Assembly (NCBI GenBank): GCA_045543495.1
Contig: JAZQMO010000066.1
Location: 3,007 to 67,006, forward strand
DNA length: 64,000 bases
Reading direction: 5' to 3'
DNA from: Eubacteriales bacterium
GTDB taxonomy: Bacteria; Bacillota; Clostridia; Oscillospirales; SIG627
The stretch's first letter is position 1; every line of letters starts with the position of its first letter. The translations under genes and the position numbers were made by a program. The notes beneath the pieces are model-generated. The model was not told the origin of the DNA. It was given only the letters and a program-made list of their open reading frames with translations, and ran no database searches. Below are positions 37,840 to 59,987 of the stretch, piece after piece.

Positions 37840-37882
37840 AAGAAAAAAGACGACTGAAAGGCTACTTCTCATAAAGATGTTA

Positions 37883-37920
37883 AAAACCTCGATGAAATTC
37901 ATCGAGGTTTTCGCTTTTTT
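37883..37920. terminator. strong terminator after DUF1015 gene (bidirectional)
   Basis: 13-bp perfect stem aaaacctcgatga / tcatcgaggtttt with loop aat, followed by cgctttttt. Confidence 0.65.
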
Positions 37921-37941
37921 ATAAGGAAAGAGCCGGCATCG

Positions 37942-37966
37942 CATTTGCGCACACAAATGTTTTTTT
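37942..37966 (+). terminator. second tandem terminator-like hairpin
   Basis: catttg cgcaca caaatg followed by seven T. Confidence 0.4.
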
Positions 37967-38004
37967 CGTGATACCCAAACCCTTTTTACAACAAAAGAAA
38001 AAAA

Positions 38005-38220
38005 GTTATATTCTGTGCTAACGCACAGAGTGATATTTTCACTTTGTGAAAGTGTTATTACTCCCTCTCGTCGTAGTGGTATTTTATTCTCCTCCGAAAC
38101 TCGCGAAGCGAATACCACTCGGCTTTTAGCCGAATATCACTGCGAAGCAATATCACTCGCCGTCAGGCGAATAAAACTGCGAGACTTCCTTATGAGAAGT
38201 CTCGCAAAGTCGTCTTTTTT
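38005..38220 (+). repeat. array of AATATCACT-type 9-mers alternating with unrelated short hairpins (copy 1); possible structured ncRNA
   Basis: Direct 9-mers: 38111 (AATACCACT), 38133 and 38149 (AATATCACT), and 38170 (AATAAAACT). A perfect inverted copy, AGTGATATT, is at 38029-38037. Seven self-complementary spacers have unrelated sequences, and the array ends in a 10-bp terminator hairpin at 38179-38205. The strand assignment is tentative. Confidence 0.5.
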
Positions 38221-38227
38221 GTGCTTT

Positions 38228-39598
38228 TTATTGGGGAAGCTTGGGCTTTAAGTCGGCGGGAATGGGAGAGGTGTACTTGCCGCCTGTTTTCTCGGTATGC
38301 TCCTTCTTTGCCTGAATCAGCTCCTCGGGTCTGTCCATCAGGCGCATCAGGGATGCGGCAACAGCCTTGCCCGCCCACAGAGCGGATCTCTTGGCATAGC
38401 TGCCTCGGCTTTGGGAGGTACTCTGCCAGCTGTGGCCGGGAGTTCCGATCACCCAGGTGCCCACGTGCATCTGCACCGTAGGAACCACCCAGCTGACATC
38501 TGCCGTATCGGTAGAGCCGCCGTGTGCCACGGGAGGAGCGGGATCCTTCACAAAGGTAGAGAAGGGAGGAAGGGTCTTGGCTTCGTCACTGAGCTTCATA
38601 GTAGCCTGCAAGGCCTTACCGAAGGCCAATTCTTCTTCGGTGGGAACGGGAAGAGGAATGTCGTGCATGGCTTCGTTTGCAATCTTTTGCAGGGTGGGAA
38701 TGGTGATCAGATTGGAGTAAGCGCTGGTGACCTTGGAGGTAAATTCGGTTTCGGTCATGGTAGCGGCTCCCTTAGCCAAAAGATCTACTCTATCCTTTAA
38801 TTCCAATACCTCCTGACAGGTGGTGGCACGGATCAGATAGGTGACCGAAGCGTGAGACTGCACCATATTGGCGGCGGTTCCGCCGGTGTCGGTAATGGCG
38901 TAGTGGATTCTGCTGGTGGGGAGCATATGCTCACGAAGGAACTGGCAGCCGATGTTCATCAATTCCACCGCATCCAGTGCGCTTCTTCCCTGATGGGGAG
39001 CGGCGCCTGCGTGGGCGGTGATGCCCTTGAAGTCGTAATCAACGTGAATGTTGGCCAAGGCGGGACGGGTGCGCACCATATACATGCTTTCGGGGTGCCA
39101 GCTGACAATGGCGTCAATCCCGTCAAAAGCGCCGTCACGGGCCATAAAGACCTTTCCGCCGCCGCCTTCCTCTGCGGGACAACCGAAAAGGGTAATGCTG
39201 CCCTTTCCTGTTTTTTCAATGTATTTCTTGACAGCAAGCACCGCCGCCAGAGAGCCTGCGGCAAACAGATTGTGCCCGCAGCCGTGGCAGGTATCCTGAT
39301 CGGGAATGGGTCTTCTCTCAGCAACCTCCCCCTCCTGACTCAGGCCGGAAAGGCCGTCAAACTCTGCCAAAACACCAAGGCTGGGGGAGCCGGTGCCGAA
39401 GCTTGCCTTAAAGGCGGTGGGAATTCCAACCAAATTTCTCGTTACGGTAAAACCGTTTTCTTCCAATTTTTCTGTCAAAAGCTTGGAGGCACTCACCTCA
39501 GCAAAGCAAAGCTCGGGCTTTGCCCAAATGGTATCGGAAACCTCGCAAAGCTCTTCTTTTTTTTCGTCAATGACGGATAAATATTCTTCGTACTGCAT
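38228..39598 (-). CDS. M20-family amidohydrolase (AbgB-like)
   Basis: ...IWAKPELCFAE...GIPTAFKASFG...LAEFDGL...CHGCGHNL...CPAEEGGGGKV... metal-ligand contexts. ATG 39598 (MQYEEY) lies after GAAGGAGGA. Confidence 0.75.
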   Translation of the reverse strand: MQYEEYLSVIDEKKEELCEVSDTIWAKPELCFAEVSASKLLTEKLEENGFTVTRNLVGIPTAFKASFGTGSPSLGVLAEFDGLSGLSQEGEVAERRPIPDQDTCHGCGHNLFAAGSLAAVLAVKKYIEKTGKGSITLFGCPAEEGGGGKVFMARDGAFDGIDAIVSWHPESMYMVRTRPALANIHVDYDFKGITAHAGAAPHQGRSALDAVELMNIGCQFLREHMLPTSRIHYAITDTGGTAANMVQSHASVTYLIRATTCQEVLELKDRVDLLAKGAATMTETEFTSKVTSAYSNLITIPTLQKIANEAMHDIPLPVPTEEELAFGKALQATMKLSDEAKTLPPFSTFVKDPAPPVAHGGSTDTADVSWVVPTVQMHVGTWVIGTPGHSWQSTSQSRGSYAKRSALWAGKAVAASLMRLMDRPEELIQAKKEHTEKTGGKYTSPIPADLKPKLPQ

Positions 39599-54841: not shown

Positions 54842-55546
54842 ATGCTTGCCATTTACAAAAAAGAGCTTCGTACTTATTTTGCCGGCCCCATCGGCTATAC
54901 CTACGTGGCCCTCTTCCTTTGCATTTCGTCCCTTCTGTTCACCTACACTACCTTGTATAACGGAACCTGTGAGGTGAATGTATACTACACCTTCCTGCTT
55001 TACATTTTCGCCATTCTCATTCCTCTTTTGACCATGAGAATGCTCAGTGAAGAAAAGAAGACCAAAACCGAGCAGATCCTCCTGACCTCACCCGTCAGCC
55101 TCTTTTCGGTGATCTTCGCCAAATACCTTGCCGCCTTCACCATGTTTGCAGGCACTCTTCTTCTTTCCTGTCTGAACTTTGTGATCCTGTATTTCTACGG
55201 CGATCCCAACAGCGTCATTATGTTTTCCACTACGCTGGGCATCCTTCTCATCGGCTCTGCCTTCGTTTCCATTGGAATTTTCATTTCCGCTTGCACCGAA
55301 AATCAGCTGATCAGTGCCCTTTTGACCATTGCCGCCATTGCCGCCACACTGGTGGTGGGCGTTCTGGCAAACTATGTGACTCTGACCCCCCTTCGTGTGG
55401 CTTTGAAGTGGATCTCCGTTTTTGACCGCTTCTACGTTTTCACTTACGGCTATTTTGATCTTGTCGCACTTTTGTATTATATCTCCATTACCGTCGTATT
55501 CCTCTTCCTGACGGTCCGTGTATTTGAAAAGCGCCGTTGGGAATAA
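54842..55546 (+). CDS. ABC-2 type transporter permease (GldF-like)
   Basis: 234-aa six-TM protein immediately after the ATPase. Confidence 0.7.
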   Translation: MLAIYKKELRTYFAGPIGYTYVALFLCISSLLFTYTTLYNGTCEVNVYYTFLLYIFAILIPLLTMRMLSEEKKTKTEQILLTSPVSLFSVIFAKYLAAFTMFAGTLLLSCLNFVILYFYGDPNSVIMFSTTLGILLIGSAFVSIGIFISACTENQLISALLTIAAIAATLVVGVLANYVTLTPLRVALKWISVFDRFYVFTYGYFDLVALLYYISITVVFLFLTVRVFEKRRWE

Positions 55547-55564
55547 GAAAGAGAGGAAAGAACA

Positions 55565-57088
55565 ATGGATAAAAAGAATACTAATATGAAAAAAGGAAAG
55601 CGTTTTTCCTCCAGAAGATTCAAATACGGTGCGGCAGCAACCGTATTTACCGTTTTGTTTATCGTGGCTGTGATCTTGCTCAATGCCATCGTTTCCGCCA
55701 TTGATTCCAAATACAGCCTCTATTTTGACCTGACCGACGATCAGATCTTCTCCATCAGTGATAAGACCGTGAAAATGGTAGACGAGCAGCTTGAGGTCTA
55801 CCGCAAGGAGCAGGGAACCGATCCTCAGATCCGTATCACCTTCCTTCAGGCAAGGGATAAGATCATGGAGGTTGAGGAAAAATCCTGGGTGGTCAATCTT
55901 GCCGAAAGCTATGCCGAAAAGTACGATCAGATCACCGTGGAATTCCGCGAGGATCTGACAACGCACCCCGAGCACTACACCAAGTATACCCAGCTGGGGT
56001 ACGAGATCAATACCGATGCCATTCTGGTGACCAATACGCAGGCAGACCATACCTTCCGCTATATGACCTTTGATTCCTGCCTCGTTTCCAATGACGAGGA
56101 GGTCTGGGCCTTCCAGGGCGAAATGAAGTTCAACGCCGCCATTTACTATATCACCAGCAAAAAGAGTCCCGTTGTTTCCTTTACCACAGGCCACGGAGAG
56201 ACCATTCCTCAGGCCCTGACCGAGGTTCTGACCAACTGCGGCTTTACCATTGAGAATGTGGATCTTTCCAAGGATGACATCAGTCCCGATTCCAAGATCC
56301 TGTTTATGTGCAGCCCCCAGAAAGATATTACCTTCTCCTCTGACGATACGGTGGTCACCGAGTATACCAAGATCTCCGATTATTTGAATGAATACCGTTC
56401 TATGGTAGTCATTGCCTCTCCCACCACGCCATCTCTTCCCGTTCTGGATGAGCTTTTGGCCGATTGGGGGATGGAGCTGGTTCGCAATCAGGTGGTTATG
56501 GATGATGTTTCCTGCCATACGCAGAACAACAAGATGCTCTATGTCAATTATGTTCCCTCCGAAAAGGTTGCGGGCAATCTGACAGGCTCCCTGACTGCTC
56601 TTTCCAACCCTCCCCGAAGCCTTTCCATCAATTCTGCTCCCATTCGTATTTTGAAAACCGAGCAGAGCGAGACCGAGGGAGTGGAGGCCGTTCTGGCAAG
56701 CTCCGATAACTCCTATGTGGAGATCGTCACCGAGGAAGGAACCAAGCGGGAGACCGGCCCCTTCAACCTGATGGCCATTTCCACCCGCTTCACCTATTTG
56801 GACAATACCGAAACCTACGGCCACGTGATGCTGATCGGCAGTGAAAACTTTACCGAGACCAACGCCTTCCGTGAGCAGTTCGGGAATACCGACATCGTGT
56901 ATAATATGATCCGTCTCCTGTCCGATGAGCATATCACCATGGAAACGCACTACAAGGTGATTGAGGATTATGCCATCGATATGGATAAGGGCAGCGTGTA
57001 TTTCTACGGCGTTGTCACGGTGGCTGTGATCCCCCTGATGGTATTTGCCTTGGGAATCGTTGTGTATATTAAGAGAAAACATCTGTAA
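55565..57088 (+). CDS. GldG-family ABC auxiliary protein
   Basis: TM anchors at both the N and C termini with a large extracytoplasmic domain. It holds the position and size typical of GldG next to GldA/F-like genes. Confidence 0.6.
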   Translation: MDKKNTNMKKGKRFSSRRFKYGAAATVFTVLFIVAVILLNAIVSAIDSKYSLYFDLTDDQIFSISDKTVKMVDEQLEVYRKEQGTDPQIRITFLQARDKIMEVEEKSWVVNLAESYAEKYDQITVEFREDLTTHPEHYTKYTQLGYEINTDAILVTNTQADHTFRYMTFDSCLVSNDEEVWAFQGEMKFNAAIYYITSKKSPVVSFTTGHGETIPQALTEVLTNCGFTIENVDLSKDDISPDSKILFMCSPQKDITFSSDDTVVTEYTKISDYLNEYRSMVVIASPTTPSLPVLDELLADWGMELVRNQVVMDDVSCHTQNNKMLYVNYVPSEKVAGNLTGSLTALSNPPRSLSINSAPIRILKTEQSETEGVEAVLASSDNSYVEIVTEEGTKRETGPFNLMAISTRFTYLDNTETYGHVMLIGSENFTETNAFREQFGNTDIVYNMIRLLSDEHITMETHYKVIEDYAIDMDKGSVYFYGVVTVAVIPLMVFALGIVVYIKRKHL

Positions 57089-57099
57089 TCGGAGTTTAT

Positions 57100-58779
57100 A
57101 TGAGTAAGCAAGAAAAAATCAATCAGAAAAAAGGACTGACCGCTCTTTGGGAGAATAAGCGTCTTCGTTCCATTCTTCTTTCTGCCGCTGTCATTCTCCT
57201 TTGTGCGGTGGTTTACGTGGTTCTTTTGTTTACCGTGTTAAAGCCCGAGGAAGAGGAGGTTCTCCCCACCGTGGGAAATCACGGAGAAGAAATGAGCGGC
57301 GCCCGTCCTTTTATTGTGGATCCTGTGGAATTGAGTCAGATCCAATCCATTGTTGTGGATAATGAATTCGGCGGATTCAATTTCTACCGTGCCGAGGACA
57401 ACGAGTTTTACTTTGAGGGTGCCGAGCATATGATCTATGACTCTCAGAGTAATTTTGCAGGAGAAGAGGGAGAGGATATGAAGGATGTTCTCTCCGGCTT
57501 CTCAGCCGTGGATGCCTTGTATTCCCTCGTTCGCTATATGCTCTCGGATGAAGAGGTGGTAGGGTACAACAAGGATCTTTCCGTTTATGGCTTGTCCGAT
57601 GGCGGCAAAGCATCCCTTACCTTGAAATATCTGGATGATGACGGAAACGAGGTCACCCAAAAGGTTCTGTTCGGAAACAAGACCGTTGCGGGCTCTTCCT
57701 ATTACTGTATGGTAGAAGGCAGAGAAGCGGTATATATCCTTCATGACAACTATGTGACCCGCTGTGTCTTCTCCGGGTTGAATTCTTATTTTTCACCCGT
57801 GGTTGCCATTCCTGTCACCAATTCTCAGCATACCGAGGTAAGCCGTCTTGAGATCAAAAAGCACGGCGAGGTATTCCTTTCTCTTCGTGCTATGACCGAG
57901 GAGGAACTGAAAGCGCAGGGAATGAGCGGCTCCGACTCCGCTTTGGACAGTCAGGTTGCCGTATCGCAAATATTTGAAACTCCCAAAGGCTACTATCCTT
58001 CTCCCGAGACTCTCCCCGAGATGCTTCTGACCTTCACCGATTTTTCCGGTGAGCAGGTAATGGAATACGGCATTACCGAGCGCCTTTCTAAGCCCGAGGA
58101 GGCAGAGGCGATCCGTGAGCTCTTCCGTCAGTACAGCCTGATGGATCAGGACAACAATTGGATTTATGAGCTTTCCTATGAGTATGAATCCATGAAGTAC
58201 AATACCACGCTCTACATCAGCGAAAAGCTGGAGGTAGAGGGAACTGCCGAAGGCGAAAAGGAAGAGATCTATTACGTTTACTCTCCCGATTTTGATTGCA
58301 TTGTAGAATTTAAGGCCGATGACCTTTTCTGGGTAGAGTGGGACGTTCTCAACTTTATGGATAACCGTGCCTACTCCGTCTTTATTGACCGTGTAGCCTC
58401 CATTGATTTTGCCTACGAAAAGACCAATGTGAAATTCTCTCTTCAGGGCGAAGGCGGCGATCTGAAGGTTTCCAGCTCCAAGGGCGGGGATGTGAATGTG
58501 GATGATTTCCGTGAGCTTTACAAGGCAATTGTATATTCCACCTTGGATGGCTACGCCGAAGAGACTGACGGTGCACAGCAGATCCTGCGTGCTACCATCA
58601 CCCTGCGTGACGGTGAGGTTTATGACTATGTCTTCTACGGACTGACCGCCCGAAAGGCCTATTACTCCCTCAACGGAAGTACCCAGTTCTATGTGAACCG
58701 TGATTATGTAAAGCAGATCATCAATACCTGTACCGCCATCCTTAACGGCGAATCCGTTAAGGTTGAACACAAGAATTGA
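57100..58779 (+). CDS. DUF4340-like membrane-anchored protein
   Basis: A single N-terminal TM segment and a large exported domain. It holds the conserved position after gldG-like genes. The family call is from context and memory. Confidence 0.5.
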   Translation: MSKQEKINQKKGLTALWENKRLRSILLSAAVILLCAVVYVVLLFTVLKPEEEEVLPTVGNHGEEMSGARPFIVDPVELSQIQSIVVDNEFGGFNFYRAEDNEFYFEGAEHMIYDSQSNFAGEEGEDMKDVLSGFSAVDALYSLVRYMLSDEEVVGYNKDLSVYGLSDGGKASLTLKYLDDDGNEVTQKVLFGNKTVAGSSYYCMVEGREAVYILHDNYVTRCVFSGLNSYFSPVVAIPVTNSQHTEVSRLEIKKHGEVFLSLRAMTEEELKAQGMSGSDSALDSQVAVSQIFETPKGYYPSPETLPEMLLTFTDFSGEQVMEYGITERLSKPEEAEAIRELFRQYSLMDQDNNWIYELSYEYESMKYNTTLYISEKLEVEGTAEGEKEEIYYVYSPDFDCIVEFKADDLFWVEWDVLNFMDNRAYSVFIDRVASIDFAYEKTNVKFSLQGEGGDLKVSSSKGGDVNVDDFRELYKAIVYSTLDGYAEETDGAQQILRATITLRDGEVYDYVFYGLTARKAYYSLNGSTQFYVNRDYVKQIINTCTAILNGESVKVEHKN

Positions 58780-58793
58780 TGAAGAATGAAAAA

Positions 58794-58886
58794 AATATCA
58801 CTAAAACCGTAGGTTTTAATATCACGATTGCCGTCGGCAATCATATCACTCTTTGCGTAGCAAAGAATATCACTATATAAAAATTA
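58794..58886 (+). repeat. array of AATATCACT 9-mers alternating with unrelated perfect hairpins (copy 2), 24-nt phase; possible 3'UTR RNA element
   Basis: Units start at 58794, 58818, 58842/3 and 58866. The spacers are aaaacc-gta-ggtttt, gattgcc-gtc-ggcaatc and ctttgc-gta-gcaaag. A degenerate AAATTACT is at 58881. Confidence 0.55.
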
Positions 58887-58929
58887 CTACCCGAAAAAGA
58901 GGTTTGTTTTCTCTTCTTCGGGTAGTTTT
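58887..58929. terminator. long bidirectional terminator hairpin closing the array
   Basis: ctacccgaa...ttcgggtag (9 bp plus an inner helix) followed by tttt. On the minus strand it is followed by taattttta. Confidence 0.55.
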
Positions 58930-58932
58930 GTC

Positions 58933-59079
58933 TTATACTGTCCCAAGCAGGGAATTTGTGTACCAAATTCCGTTTTTAATATCCGTATAAACGCTGTAGC
59001 CTGTTTTTACGCTGTTCTGCATGACAGGCTTGTCGGGAGAATAGATCTCTCTTGCAAATCCAATGGAGATAGAATTCAT
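58933..59079 (-). CDS. possible 48-aa small ORF downstream of the MBL hydrolase gene
   Basis: ATG 59079 lies after GAGGGA. The translation is MNSISIGFAREIYSPDKPVMQNSVKTGYSVYTDIKNGIWYTNSLLGTV. It is below the ORF-track cutoff and has no recognisable family. Confidence 0.2.
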   Translation of the reverse strand: MNSISIGFAREIYSPDKPVMQNSVKTGYSVYTDIKNGIWYTNSLLGTV

Positions 59080-59102
59080 TTGATCCCTCGCATCGTTTTT
59101 TG

Positions 59103-59987
59103 TCAATATCCTCTTTGAATGAAATCCTGCCGGCTTTCCTCAAGGGCCGTTAAAAATTCATTCCAGGCATTGGGATTGATAAAAGGATTTTTGTTGGGGT
59201 TTTCTATCATATATTCACGCTTTGAAATAGTGCAGTTTTGATTGGGGTGGTTCCCCAAAACAATATCTACCTTTTCCTTTTTGAGCTTCTTGATGGTCTC
59301 GCCCATTTTCTCGCTCTTATTTTCGGGAAGGCCATATTCTCGGCAATATTCTTTGTATACCGTGAGAAAACCAACACCACCGAAATATCCCGCACGAAGA
59401 GTCTTGTCCCCGTCGCTTACGTCGAAGAAGAAGGCCATGGTACCGAAGGTGTGGCCGGGGGCAAGAACGCAATGGATCTTGGTGTTCCCGAGGGCAATGA
59501 CCTCTCCGTCCTCCAGCGTCTTGTCGGGCCAGCAGATCCCGTCGTGCCCTTCGGGAGCAAGGTGCATCAGGGCACGCCTTGGCTCTTCACGGATCAGATC
59601 CGTATCCACACGGCTCATTAAAATTTTGGCGCCGTAGCGATCACGCAGGCGATTGCCGCCGCCGAAATGATCAAAGTGCCCGTGGGAATGAATCACGAAT
59701 TTAATGTCCTTGGGAGAAAAACCGAGGCTTTCAATGGAATGGATCAGGGCATCGTAATGGTTGGAATAGCCGCTGTCAAAGAGAATGAGACCGTCTCCCG
59801 TATCCACGAGGTGCATACAGACCTTTTTGTCTCCTACATAATAAAGATTTCCGAAAATACGAAAAGGGTCGATGTTAAAGGCATCGGGATCCGCATAATA
59901 GGGGCCGTGCTTGGGGAGAAAATTACCCATTACGGTTTCATAAGGAGCGTTGGGGGCAAAGTCAAATTCCTTGTATTCTGCTTTCAT
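59103..59987 (-). CDS. MBL-fold metallo-hydrolase
   Basis: HSHGHFDHFGG (HxHxDH) and ...LAPGHTFG.... Confidence 0.75.
   Translation of the reverse strand: MKAEYKEFDFAPNAPYETVMGNFLPKHGPYYADPDAFNIDPFRIFGNLYYVGDKKVCMHLVDTGDGLILFDSGYSNHYDALIHSIESLGFSPKDIKFVIHSHGHFDHFGGGNRLRDRYGAKILMSRVDTDLIREEPRRALMHLAPEGHDGICWPDKTLEDGEVIALGNTKIHCVLAPGHTFGTMAFFFDVSDGDKTLRAGYFGGVGFLTVYKEYCREYGLPENKSEKMGETIKKLKKEKVDIVLGNHPNQNCTISKREYMIENPNKNPFINPNAWNEFLTALEESRQDFIQRGY

Follow-up and report, generated by a model that had tools for sequence, protein, structure and literature searches.

A solitary Gut-1 (RF01706) hairpin array between a DUF4340 gene and a terminator in a gut Clostridia genome, and the linkage of its family to PF05635 genes at tRNA 3' ends

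What is a strictly phased array of short repeated linkers and mutually unrelated hairpins doing between a stop codon and a transcription terminator? This question is raised by positions 58794-58874 of a 64,000-nt stretch of contig JAZQMO010000066.1 (assembly GCA_045543495.1, Eubacteriales bacterium), called the window here. The original prediction, made from the letters of the window alone, saw in the array the grammar of a dispersed family. Sequence comparison identifies it as an orphan, solo "left arm" of the Gut-1 family (Rfam RF01706), a sub-threshold copy of the GUGAUAU variant; the motif was therefore already catalogued. The features of the array are as follows.

58794-58874, plus strand: solo Gut-1 arm, in which three perfect hairpins alternate with four linkers of 7-9 nt (AATATCAC[T])
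58794-58802, plus strand: linker AATATCACT, read from the sequence
58803-58817, plus strand: hairpin aaaacc-gta-ggtttt, slot 3 if the arm is read on the minus strand
58818-58825, plus strand: linker AATATCAC, read from the sequence
58826-58842, plus strand: hairpin gattgcc-gtc-ggcaatc, slot 2
58843-58850, plus strand: linker ATATCACT, read from the sequence
58851-58865, plus strand: hairpin ctttgc-gta-gcaaag, slot 1 if the arm is read on the minus strand
58866-58874, plus strand: linker AATATCACT, read from the sequence
58881-58888, plus strand: degenerate linker AAATTACT, overlapping the terminator foot and equivalent to the position-specific first linker (J1) of terminator-abutting arms
about 58887-58925, both strands: bidirectional intrinsic terminator hairpin, with the plus-strand tail AGTTTTGTCTT followed by TTTT, and the minus-strand tail AGTAATTTTTATAT

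The array is real and non-random. The four linkers recur with a period of exactly 24 nt, and the three hairpins have perfect stems, 3-nt loops and mutually unrelated stem sequences; the phase, the hairpins and the placement from stop codon to terminator were all confirmed to the base. Folding of 58790-58935 gave three local hairpins plus the terminator as both the minimum-free-energy and the centroid structure. The fold z-scores were -4.9 (plus strand) and -4.7 (minus strand) for 58790-58886, and -7.2 and -9.2, respectively, for 58790-58935; none of 200 shuffles folded as well as the array region. The exact AATATCACT 9-mer occurs five times in the window, always inside this array or a second locus at 38 kb (copy 1), and the exact 7-mer occurs 15 times against 3.0 expected (maximum 9). 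A chain of three or more motifs with perfect hairpins was found in 0 of 300 Markov-simulated windows, which, together with the Gut-1 E-value given below, bears out the view that chance is not the explanation. The terminator scan found no intrinsic terminator (a GC-rich hairpin with a U run after it) within 58794-58886, the stretch of the three small hairpins; the linkers read AAUAUCACU or GUGAUAUU. A promoter scan of the array also found none.

The Rfam scan of the window at the gathering threshold identified Gut-1 at 38107-38179 (minus strand, 50.6 bits). With E-value thresholds, Gut-1 was also found at 58790-58875 on the minus strand; at 41 bits (E 1.4e-4 over the whole window), this match falls short of the gathering score, 50 bits. 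The alignment to the model is full-length (model positions 1-77), and the array has the three consecutive hairpins with flanking GUGAAAU-like linkers that characterize the motif. Many related loci score 51-79 bits, and left arms of the GUGAUAU type mostly lie below the cut-off. Gut-1 was described from human-gut metagenomes only, as a covariation-supported candidate non-coding RNA with no organism and no function given; in its seed alignment, stop codons, terminators or a tRNA precede the motif, and a second array follows it in inverted orientation (Weinberg et al. 2010, PMC2864571). It is annotated in Rfam as "Gene; sRNA" (small RNA), and a literature search found no further paper mentioning it.

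Relatives were sampled by a pattern scan (GTGAWAT-N13-20 three times) of genomes, viral contigs and metagenomes, followed by a hairpin filter, and more than 80 loci of about 8 kb were fetched, numbered with the prefix L. In BLASTN, 58788-58882 aligns with more than 20 left arms, and the similarity ends at the arm edges; the best match is L095 (82% over 96 nt, E 8e-18). Hairpin 1 of the array (minus-strand slot 1) matches slot 1 of L006, L107 and L095; hairpin 3 (minus-strand slot 3) matches slot 3 of L045, L111 and L110, which in L045 and L111 reads TGAAACC-TAC-GGTTTCA. These same-slot matches and the BLASTN alignments are the reason for calling the array a solo left arm. Hairpin 2 has no close relative among the compared arms, and an exact-pattern scan of metagenomes for it gave no match. 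The original prediction held that the stems share no sequence, which is correct inside the array but fails when the two copies (hairpin 1, one compensated pair, see below) or different genomes (hairpins 1 and 3) are compared.

The family is dispersed, as had been proposed from the two loci in the window. Genuine arms were found in at least 77 genome loci, nearly all from metagenome-assembled genomes (MAGs) of gut Clostridia (Oscillospiraceae, Acutalibacteraceae, Ruminococcaceae, Christensenellaceae and "Eubacteriales"); the exceptions among the genome loci listed were three Akkermansia or Akkermansiaceae and one Bacteroidaceae MAG. Among the matches listed, five MAGs matched on two or three contigs each, and a handful of viral contigs carried genuine arms. 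No plasmid match was obtained, and one match was an unannotated faecal phage-like contig. Several of the fetched 8-kb loci contain a second independent element, which, with two loci per 64 kb here, suggests tens of copies per genome.

The arms have a fixed format. Four linkers and three hairpins are present in 67 of 101 arms. An alignment of 39 unique arms, anchored on the linkers, has 97.2% of its stem cells paired, against 41.9% with the partner slid by one, and every position shows 3-5 pair types. Hairpins within one arm are unrelated, which sustains the earlier view that they are not decayed copies of one palindrome; among GUGAUAU-type arms, hairpins of different genomes resemble each other more if they occupy the same slot than if they do not. 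Full elements consist of two inverted arms, head-to-head. The hairpins of the right arm are short and sequence-conserved (cgcGAAgcg, cggc..gccg, gcGAAgc and cgccGTAAggcg), with position-specific linker variants, and this arm is bracketed by a 10-bp inverted repeat (X:X') whose halves are 79-87 nt apart, perfect in 29 of 47 cases and with five covarying variants. A long-range X:X' helix was considered as evidence for RNA and set aside: the covariation is clear, but the mismatches show no strand bias (7 versus 7) and fit a DNA inverted repeat equally. Promoters inside the arms were also rejected as a general rule; TTGAAA-N16/17-TGnTATTAT is found in hairpin 3 of the GUGAUAU type and TATAAT mid-arm on the other strand, with nothing comparable in the GUGAAAU type.

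Copy 1 has both arms, and its features are listed below.

38003-38087, plus strand: left arm, GTGATAT orientation on the plus strand, hairpin 3 and two linkers degenerate, Gut-1 34.3 bits
about 38088-38097 and about 38167-38176: inverted repeat bracketing the right arm, X TTTATTCTCC and X' GGCGAATAAA
38107-38179, minus strand: right arm, GTGATAT orientation on the minus strand, Gut-1 50.6 bits, above the gathering score
38180-38206: terminator hairpin abutting the right arm, stems conserved in the L066 orthologue

Copy 1 (38003-38179) thus comprises two arms of opposite orientation. The array at 58 kb had been said to lie on the same strand as this copy, which applies to the right arm; the left arm is opposite. 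Hairpin 1 of the array (minus strand, TCTTTGC-TAC-GCAAAGA) is homologous to the copy-1 left-arm hairpin at 38012-38029 (TCTGTGC-TAAC-GCACAGA), with one compensated pair different. An apparent orthologue of copy 1 was found in L066, an Acutalibacteraceae MAG (window 37860-38235 against L066 2430-2815, 89% identity including both flanking terminators). Each lineage has uncompensated damage in one arm, namely the linkers GTGTTAT and GTGGTAT in the window and AATATAACT plus a broken gcAAAtc in L066; both flanking terminator stems are intact, with loop changes only. The arm at 58794-58874 is still perfect, so it is either a recent copy or under some constraint. A promoter-like site is present at 37985-38012 (plus strand, TTTACA-16-TATATT, 10 of 12 matches), whose -10 falls within GTTATATT, the first degenerate linker of the copy-1 left arm; transcription from it would cross both arms and reach the terminator at 38180-38206, but the site is at chance level and not general to the family.

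The surroundings of the arms are also stereotyped. A hairpin lies within 20 nt of the arm in about 60 of 108 cases, and often it is a terminator of perfect symmetry, (G)A5-7-stem-loop-stem-T5-7CA. In about 20 of about 80 loci, the arm element lies 36-43 nt after a tRNA gene, and at least 11 isoacceptor types are represented. CCA precedes all 16 stereotyped terminators at a distance of 0-1 nt, including 5-6 that are not at a tRNA; the boundary of the cassette described below therefore coincides with the tRNA 3' end. The loci with a CCA-preceded stereotyped terminator are L042, L053, L055, L063, L078, L088 (4973) and 13-14 tRNA-adjacent loci; in L057 and L082, only a tRNA 3' fragment (T arm and acceptor strand) precedes the terminator. 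Flank orientation was assigned by a codon model trained on the window, which gave no call for about half of the flanks; of the 48 cases with a call, 41 have a gene or tRNA 3' end opposite the terminator-proximal side of the arm. The array at 58794-58874 follows this rule, its terminator side facing the 3' end of a metallo-beta-lactamase-fold (MBL) gene. Thirteen solo arms could be placed in this way: eight lie downstream of a same-strand gene, and five face a divergent gene start.

Which protein accompanies these arms? The nearest complete open reading frame (ORF) on each side of the elements, 110 in all, was compared with Pfam, and the top neighbour family was PF05635 (23S_rRNA_IVP; 5 of 110). 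A hidden Markov model built from these five proteins identified 12 genes across all loci, and 10 of the 12 share the same geometry in one direction: tRNA-CCA (or CCA), bidirectional terminator, right arm, X, left arm, sigma-A-like promoter, ribosome-binding site, and a PF05635 gene of about 115 aa. The promoter -35 starts 0-10 nt past the last linker, with two cases leaving no room for a promoter. On the PF05635 coding strand, the left arm reads AAUWUCAC. The loci with an arm pair and a PF05635 gene are as follows.

L008: 4814-5440
L055: 776-1390
L102: 3874-4400
L018: 1-576
L054: 452-1050
L021: 5970-6529
L078: 1220-1831
L039: 6899-7400
L281: 609-1222
L366: 6513-7091
L367-L386

In a reciprocal test, homologues were picked by protein alone; for two of them (P0240 and P0261), 20 places were retrieved. 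Of these, the 18 with 269 nt or more of upstream DNA carry, without exception, a complete arm pair and the stereotyped terminator. More than 8000 homologues of the cassette protein were found at E <= 1e-10, the best 120 of which (P0177-P0296) are all at least 87% identical; most close homologues lie on contigs of 0.5-2 kb, which is what an assembly-breaking element in many copies would lead one to expect. The cassette, about 0.84 kb long from the CCA to about 225 nt past the stop codon, is 99.5% identical over 843 nt between two unrelated flanks, and 95.3% identical over 836 nt to a copy in a third flank. The cassette protein has a match in the five-chain PDB entry 2RLD. Avd, an accessory protein of diversity-generating retroelements (DGRs; PMC10053308), belongs to PF05635, as does the S23p ORF carried by the selfish intervening sequence (IVS) in the 23S rRNA of Coxiella (PMC4990558). 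These comparisons of loci show that the Gut-1 family provides the non-coding module of a recurrent tRNA-3'-end cassette, which encodes a predicted Avd-like protein.

About 85-90% of the sampled elements have no PF05635 gene, and no such gene or remnant was found in the 64-kb window, including the regions near both copies. The array has a single arm and its own, non-stereotyped terminator. Both copies in the window are protein-less orphans.

Several side observations concern the cassette and its grammar. A small zinc-ribbon ORF follows the PF05635 gene in L367 (2294-2437) and L376 (832-1374), inside or at the edge of the 0.84-kb segment, and an rve-type insertion sequence lies just past it in L367. 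In L028 (972-1516), a tandem GTGAAAT(-N) repeat without hairpins is present just past the 3' end of a PF05635-like gene; similar hairpin-less repeats occur in L026, L041, L089, L100 and L120, and they look like unrelated microsatellites. The Akkermansia MAG locus L004 (2150-3400 and 5850-6650) has three tandem repeats of a unit of about 440 nt, each with a GTGAAAT arm and then a second hairpin array with another constant linker, (A)CGAGATT; the PF05635 gene in this region is flanked by arms with variant linkers of the GTTATAT/GGATAAAT type. A grammar of constant linker plus free hairpin thus exists with linkers other than those of Gut-1.

The next question is which strand acts. The loops TTC, TGC, TAC, TTAC and TTGC of the GTGATAT strand are GAA, GCA, GTA, GTAA and GCAA on the AATATCAC strand, where they take the form GNA or GNRA with a C-G closing pair. 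An independent set of 40 metagenome loops has 22 T..C and no G..A on the GTGATAT strand. Stem mismatches are rare (19 of 1486 pairs, 1.3%, in 260 unique hairpins), and on the GTGATAT strand 16 are A:C and 3 are G:T (p 0.004); A:C on this strand is G.U on the opposite one. The metagenome set adds 2 to 0, for a total of 18 to 3. Some mismatches are intermediates of compensated variants, such as TGAAACC..GGCTTCA between the forms ending in ..GGTTTCA and TGAAGCC..GGCTTCA. The direction of the adjacent terminators was also tried as a strand indicator and discarded, since most are symmetric and the unidirectional cases divide 5 versus 4. The loop and mismatch statistics lean towards the AAUAUCAC strand, the plus strand here and the opposite of Rfam's; on geometry, the array should then be carried in the 3' untranslated region (UTR) of the ABC-transporter/DUF4340 transcript.

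The two genes that enclose the array are as follows.

57100-58779, plus strand: DUF4340 gene, last of the ABC-transporter operon, stop codon TGA at 58777-58779, 15 nt before the array
59103-59987, minus strand: convergent MBL gene, 3' end facing the terminator-proximal side of the arm

The plus-strand flank encodes an ABC transporter (ABC_tran and ABC2_membrane), an unassigned 507-aa protein and the DUF4340 protein; the minus-strand flank encodes the MBL protein, GDPD and Fe-ADH. Their annotated homologues are from Clostridia or Ruminococcaceae. The context had been described as gldAFG-like, a Bacteroidetes-type label that these relatives contradict: they place the host, an uncultured bacterium, among the gut Clostridia. 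Between the shared terminator and the MBL stop codon (59103) lie about 175 nt of non-coding DNA (58930-59102). A second terminator-like hairpin is present there (58951-58971, plus strand, GGAATTTGTGTACCAAATTCC, then GTTTTTAAT), and no similarity to the Gut-1/PF05635 cassette or to PF05635 was found in this stretch. A 664-aa open frame (55088-57082, minus strand) runs antisense to the real 507-aa gene (55565-57088, plus strand) and is a shadow ORF by codon-usage score (0.004 versus 0.325); with such long shadow ORFs, gene calling by length is unsafe in this genome.

Taken as a whole, our preferred explanation is that the array is an orphan Gut-1 arm, a fixed-format module that would act as the single-stranded partner of an Avd-like protein and was inserted here; we give it a probability slightly above one half (about 55%). 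The module consists of four 7-nt linkers (GUGAUAU/GUGAAAU, or AUAUCAC on the other strand) parting three hairpins of free sequence. The arms might act as single-stranded nucleic acid, probably the AAUAUCAC strand, and would display hairpins capped by C(GNA)G or C(GNRA)G together with exposed AUAUCAC linkers; for the gene-adjacent arm of full cassettes, the displaying strand would be the PF05635 coding strand. We suggest that the arms may be a cis binding array for a pentameric Avd-like protein, which would regulate or propagate the cassette, and that gene-less arms might be MITE-like (miniature inverted-repeat transposable element) satellites or decaying derivatives. Here, the strand preferred by loops and mismatches would be that of the ABC-transporter/DUF4340 mRNA, giving it three very stable 3' UTR hairpins just before the terminator. 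The local effect might at most be a barrier to 3' exonucleases and read-through, as in repetitive extragenic palindromes (REPs) and bacterial interspersed mosaic elements (BIMEs), acquired by insertion.

Several points weigh against this explanation. Regarding the strand, the linker ends on the GUGAUAU strand can pair (U.G, A-U, U.G), lengthening every stem, and the Rfam model uses these pairs; the minus strand of the array folds more stably (-27.5 versus -20.8 kcal/mol); and a looser wobble-pair count gives 12 to 6 only. Regarding the orphan status, copy 1 and its L066 counterpart differ less within the element than in the non-coding DNA beside it; orphan copies might therefore be non-neutral. 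Regarding mobility, the leading families of the 110 neighbour ORFs include no recombinase, transposase, integrase or reverse transcriptase, no target-site duplication was seen at the duplicated copies, and the copy number per genome was inferred from the 8-kb loci only. Finally, most cassettes have their promoter after the left arm and before the gene; the PF05635 mRNA may thus lack the arm, and a role at the DNA level is equally possible.

A bolder reading, to which we give less than even odds, is that Gut-1 arrays and the Avd-like protein together might form an undescribed small selfish cassette lodging at tRNA CCA ends, with protein-less arms as satellites recognised in trans; it would be the tRNA equivalent of the 23S rRNA intervening sequences that carry S23p. 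Spread through an RNA intermediate is conceivable because the CCA-to-terminator boundaries resemble a processed read-through transcript.

Four other explanations were weighed. The array might be a conserved cis-regulatory element of the 3' UTR, controlling decay or processing of the ABC-transporter/DUF4340 mRNA. Its geometry (stop codon, 15 nt, array, terminator) is suitable, no terminator was predicted between the DUF4340 stop codon and the array, the favoured strand is that of the mRNA, and the majority of the solo arms with a call (8 of 13) lie downstream of a same-strand gene; the other five, however, face a divergent gene start. The array is also missing 3' of DUF4340 orthologues with 81, 62 and 59% identity, which have a stop codon and terminator only, and it was not found at MBL-gene homologues of about 70% identity. 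The array was therefore acquired in this lineage and is no conserved 3'-end part of either gene, and the same arm sequence adjoins unrelated genes in more than 20 genomes. We consider this explanation unlikely. The original prediction of a 3' UTR position is retained in part: the array may well be transcribed there, given the missing upstream terminator and the strand statistics, but it does not belong to the conserved 3' UTR of this operon.

It also seems improbable that the array is a REP/REPIN-like single-stranded DNA element, in which an HUH/Y1-type enzyme would recognise the C(GNA)G hairpins and the linker while the PF05635 gene is mere cargo. C-G-closed GNA triloops are present in 141 of 260 hairpins. 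Such triloops are reportedly extra-stable as DNA mini-hairpins, as in the d(GCGAAGC) of Hirao and Yoshizawa. The almost perfect Watson-Crick stems (1.3% mismatches), the X:X' mismatches without strand bias (7 to 7), the inverted pairs, the high copy number and the intergenic 3'-end niche are consistent with DNA as well. However, no Y1/HUH, RAYT (REP-associated tyrosine transposase) or other transposase family was found among the leading families of the 110 neighbour ORFs, the stems are not conserved in sequence as those of REPs are, no target-site duplication was found, and there is no enrichment on plasmids or phages.

The Rfam annotation would make the array a trans-acting Gut-1 sRNA gene that is read on the minus strand following the MBL gene, in line with the class to which Weinberg et al. 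assigned the motif. In favour of this are the Rfam model with its "Gene; sRNA" label, the strong covariation and the greater stability of the minus strand through its linker-end G.U pairs, but a minus-strand arm would be located downstream of a strong terminator and run into the DUF4340 stop codon in antisense, with no promoter found. The minus-strand loops (UNC/UNNC) are not known stable motifs, and the mismatches would be A.C and not G.U (18 to 3). Tens of copies per genome, as suggested above, in inverted pairs and with presence or absence among relatives, are unusual for an sRNA gene. A protein gene on the opposite strand is, moreover, linked to the motif in a fixed arrangement. An sRNA gene is thus quite improbable here.

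Lastly, a binding-site array on double-stranded DNA (iteron-, operator- or transposon-end-like) with incidental hairpins is very improbable: repeated 7-9-mers with a period of about two helical turns, and arms directly upstream of the PF05635 promoter -35 in full cassettes, would suit it, but the linker period is not constant in the family (19-29 nt, although exactly 24 nt here), which speaks against a helical phase on duplex DNA, the spacers are always palindromic with strong covariation, and the strand-asymmetric loops and mismatches would have no explanation on a duplex. Likenesses of the linker to CRISPR, iterons, attC, parS, Rex and CRP half-sites, HUH nick sites and the 16S 3' end were also considered, and none agrees with its spacing, its orientation or the palindromic spacers.

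The array itself is an ordinary orphan copy of a repeat that has been in Rfam since 2010, and its local significance is modest. The family is of wider interest, as the motif had been without host, function or partner for fifteen years. It can now be placed in cultivable-type lineages, the Clostridia (Oscillospirales-like) and Akkermansia. New are its constant architecture with its ties to bidirectional terminators and the 3' ends of tRNAs, the doubt about the annotated strand, and the physical link to a PF05635/Avd-like protein, by which an "unknown sRNA" becomes a testable protein-nucleic-acid system. The cassette may also account for the placement of the abundant "four helix bundle protein" genes of gut bacteria on short, assembly-breaking contigs.

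The array shares with Gut-1 as described in 2010 the three hairpins parted by GUGAAAU/GUGAUAU linkers and the gut origin; that description had no protein partner and models the strand opposite to the one favoured here. Like CRISPR, Gut-1 alternates a short conserved repeat with variable sequence, but its repeats are 7-9 nt (23-50 nt in CRISPR), and its "spacers" of 13-20 nt are palindromic, always three in number and homologous between genomes, with no cas genes. Elements of the BOX, RUP and Correia type (MITEs of Firmicutes and Neisseria) are likewise modular, structured, intergenic and multi-copy with inverted ends; they conserve the module sequence and vary the number, whereas Gut-1 fixes the number and varies the stems. 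Full Gut-1 elements do have inverted linkers and the 10-bp X:X' repeat, but no target-site duplication was seen at duplicated copies, and the array is one arm only.

REP/BIME elements are similar in being short high-copy palindromes with an adjacent conserved motif, often in inverted pairs, at gene 3' ends or between convergent genes. They are able to stabilise upstream mRNA, and most copies lie far from the single protein gene of the system. Their stems are conserved within a genome and their partner is a Y1 HUH transposase (RAYT), while Gut-1 has free stems that differ between and within arms, a fixed number of three hairpins, the linker GTGATAT in place of a 5' GTAG-type tetranucleotide, tRNA-CCA adjacency, and a linked four-helix-bundle protein without known catalytic activity. 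DGRs, with Avd and a template RNA (PMC10053308), resemble the cassette in placing a pentameric Avd-like four-helix-bundle protein beside a structured non-coding partner; unlike in DGRs, no reverse transcriptase and no template or variable repeats were found near Gut-1 cassettes. The 23S rRNA IVS of Coxiella with its S23p/PF05635 gene (PMC4990558) is also a small selfish inverted-repeat module at a stable-RNA gene that carries a PF05635 ORF. The IVS is located inside helix 25/45 of the 23S rRNA and is excised by RNase III, whereas the Gut-1 cassette follows the CCA end of a tRNA and a terminator, and carries phased mini-hairpin arms.

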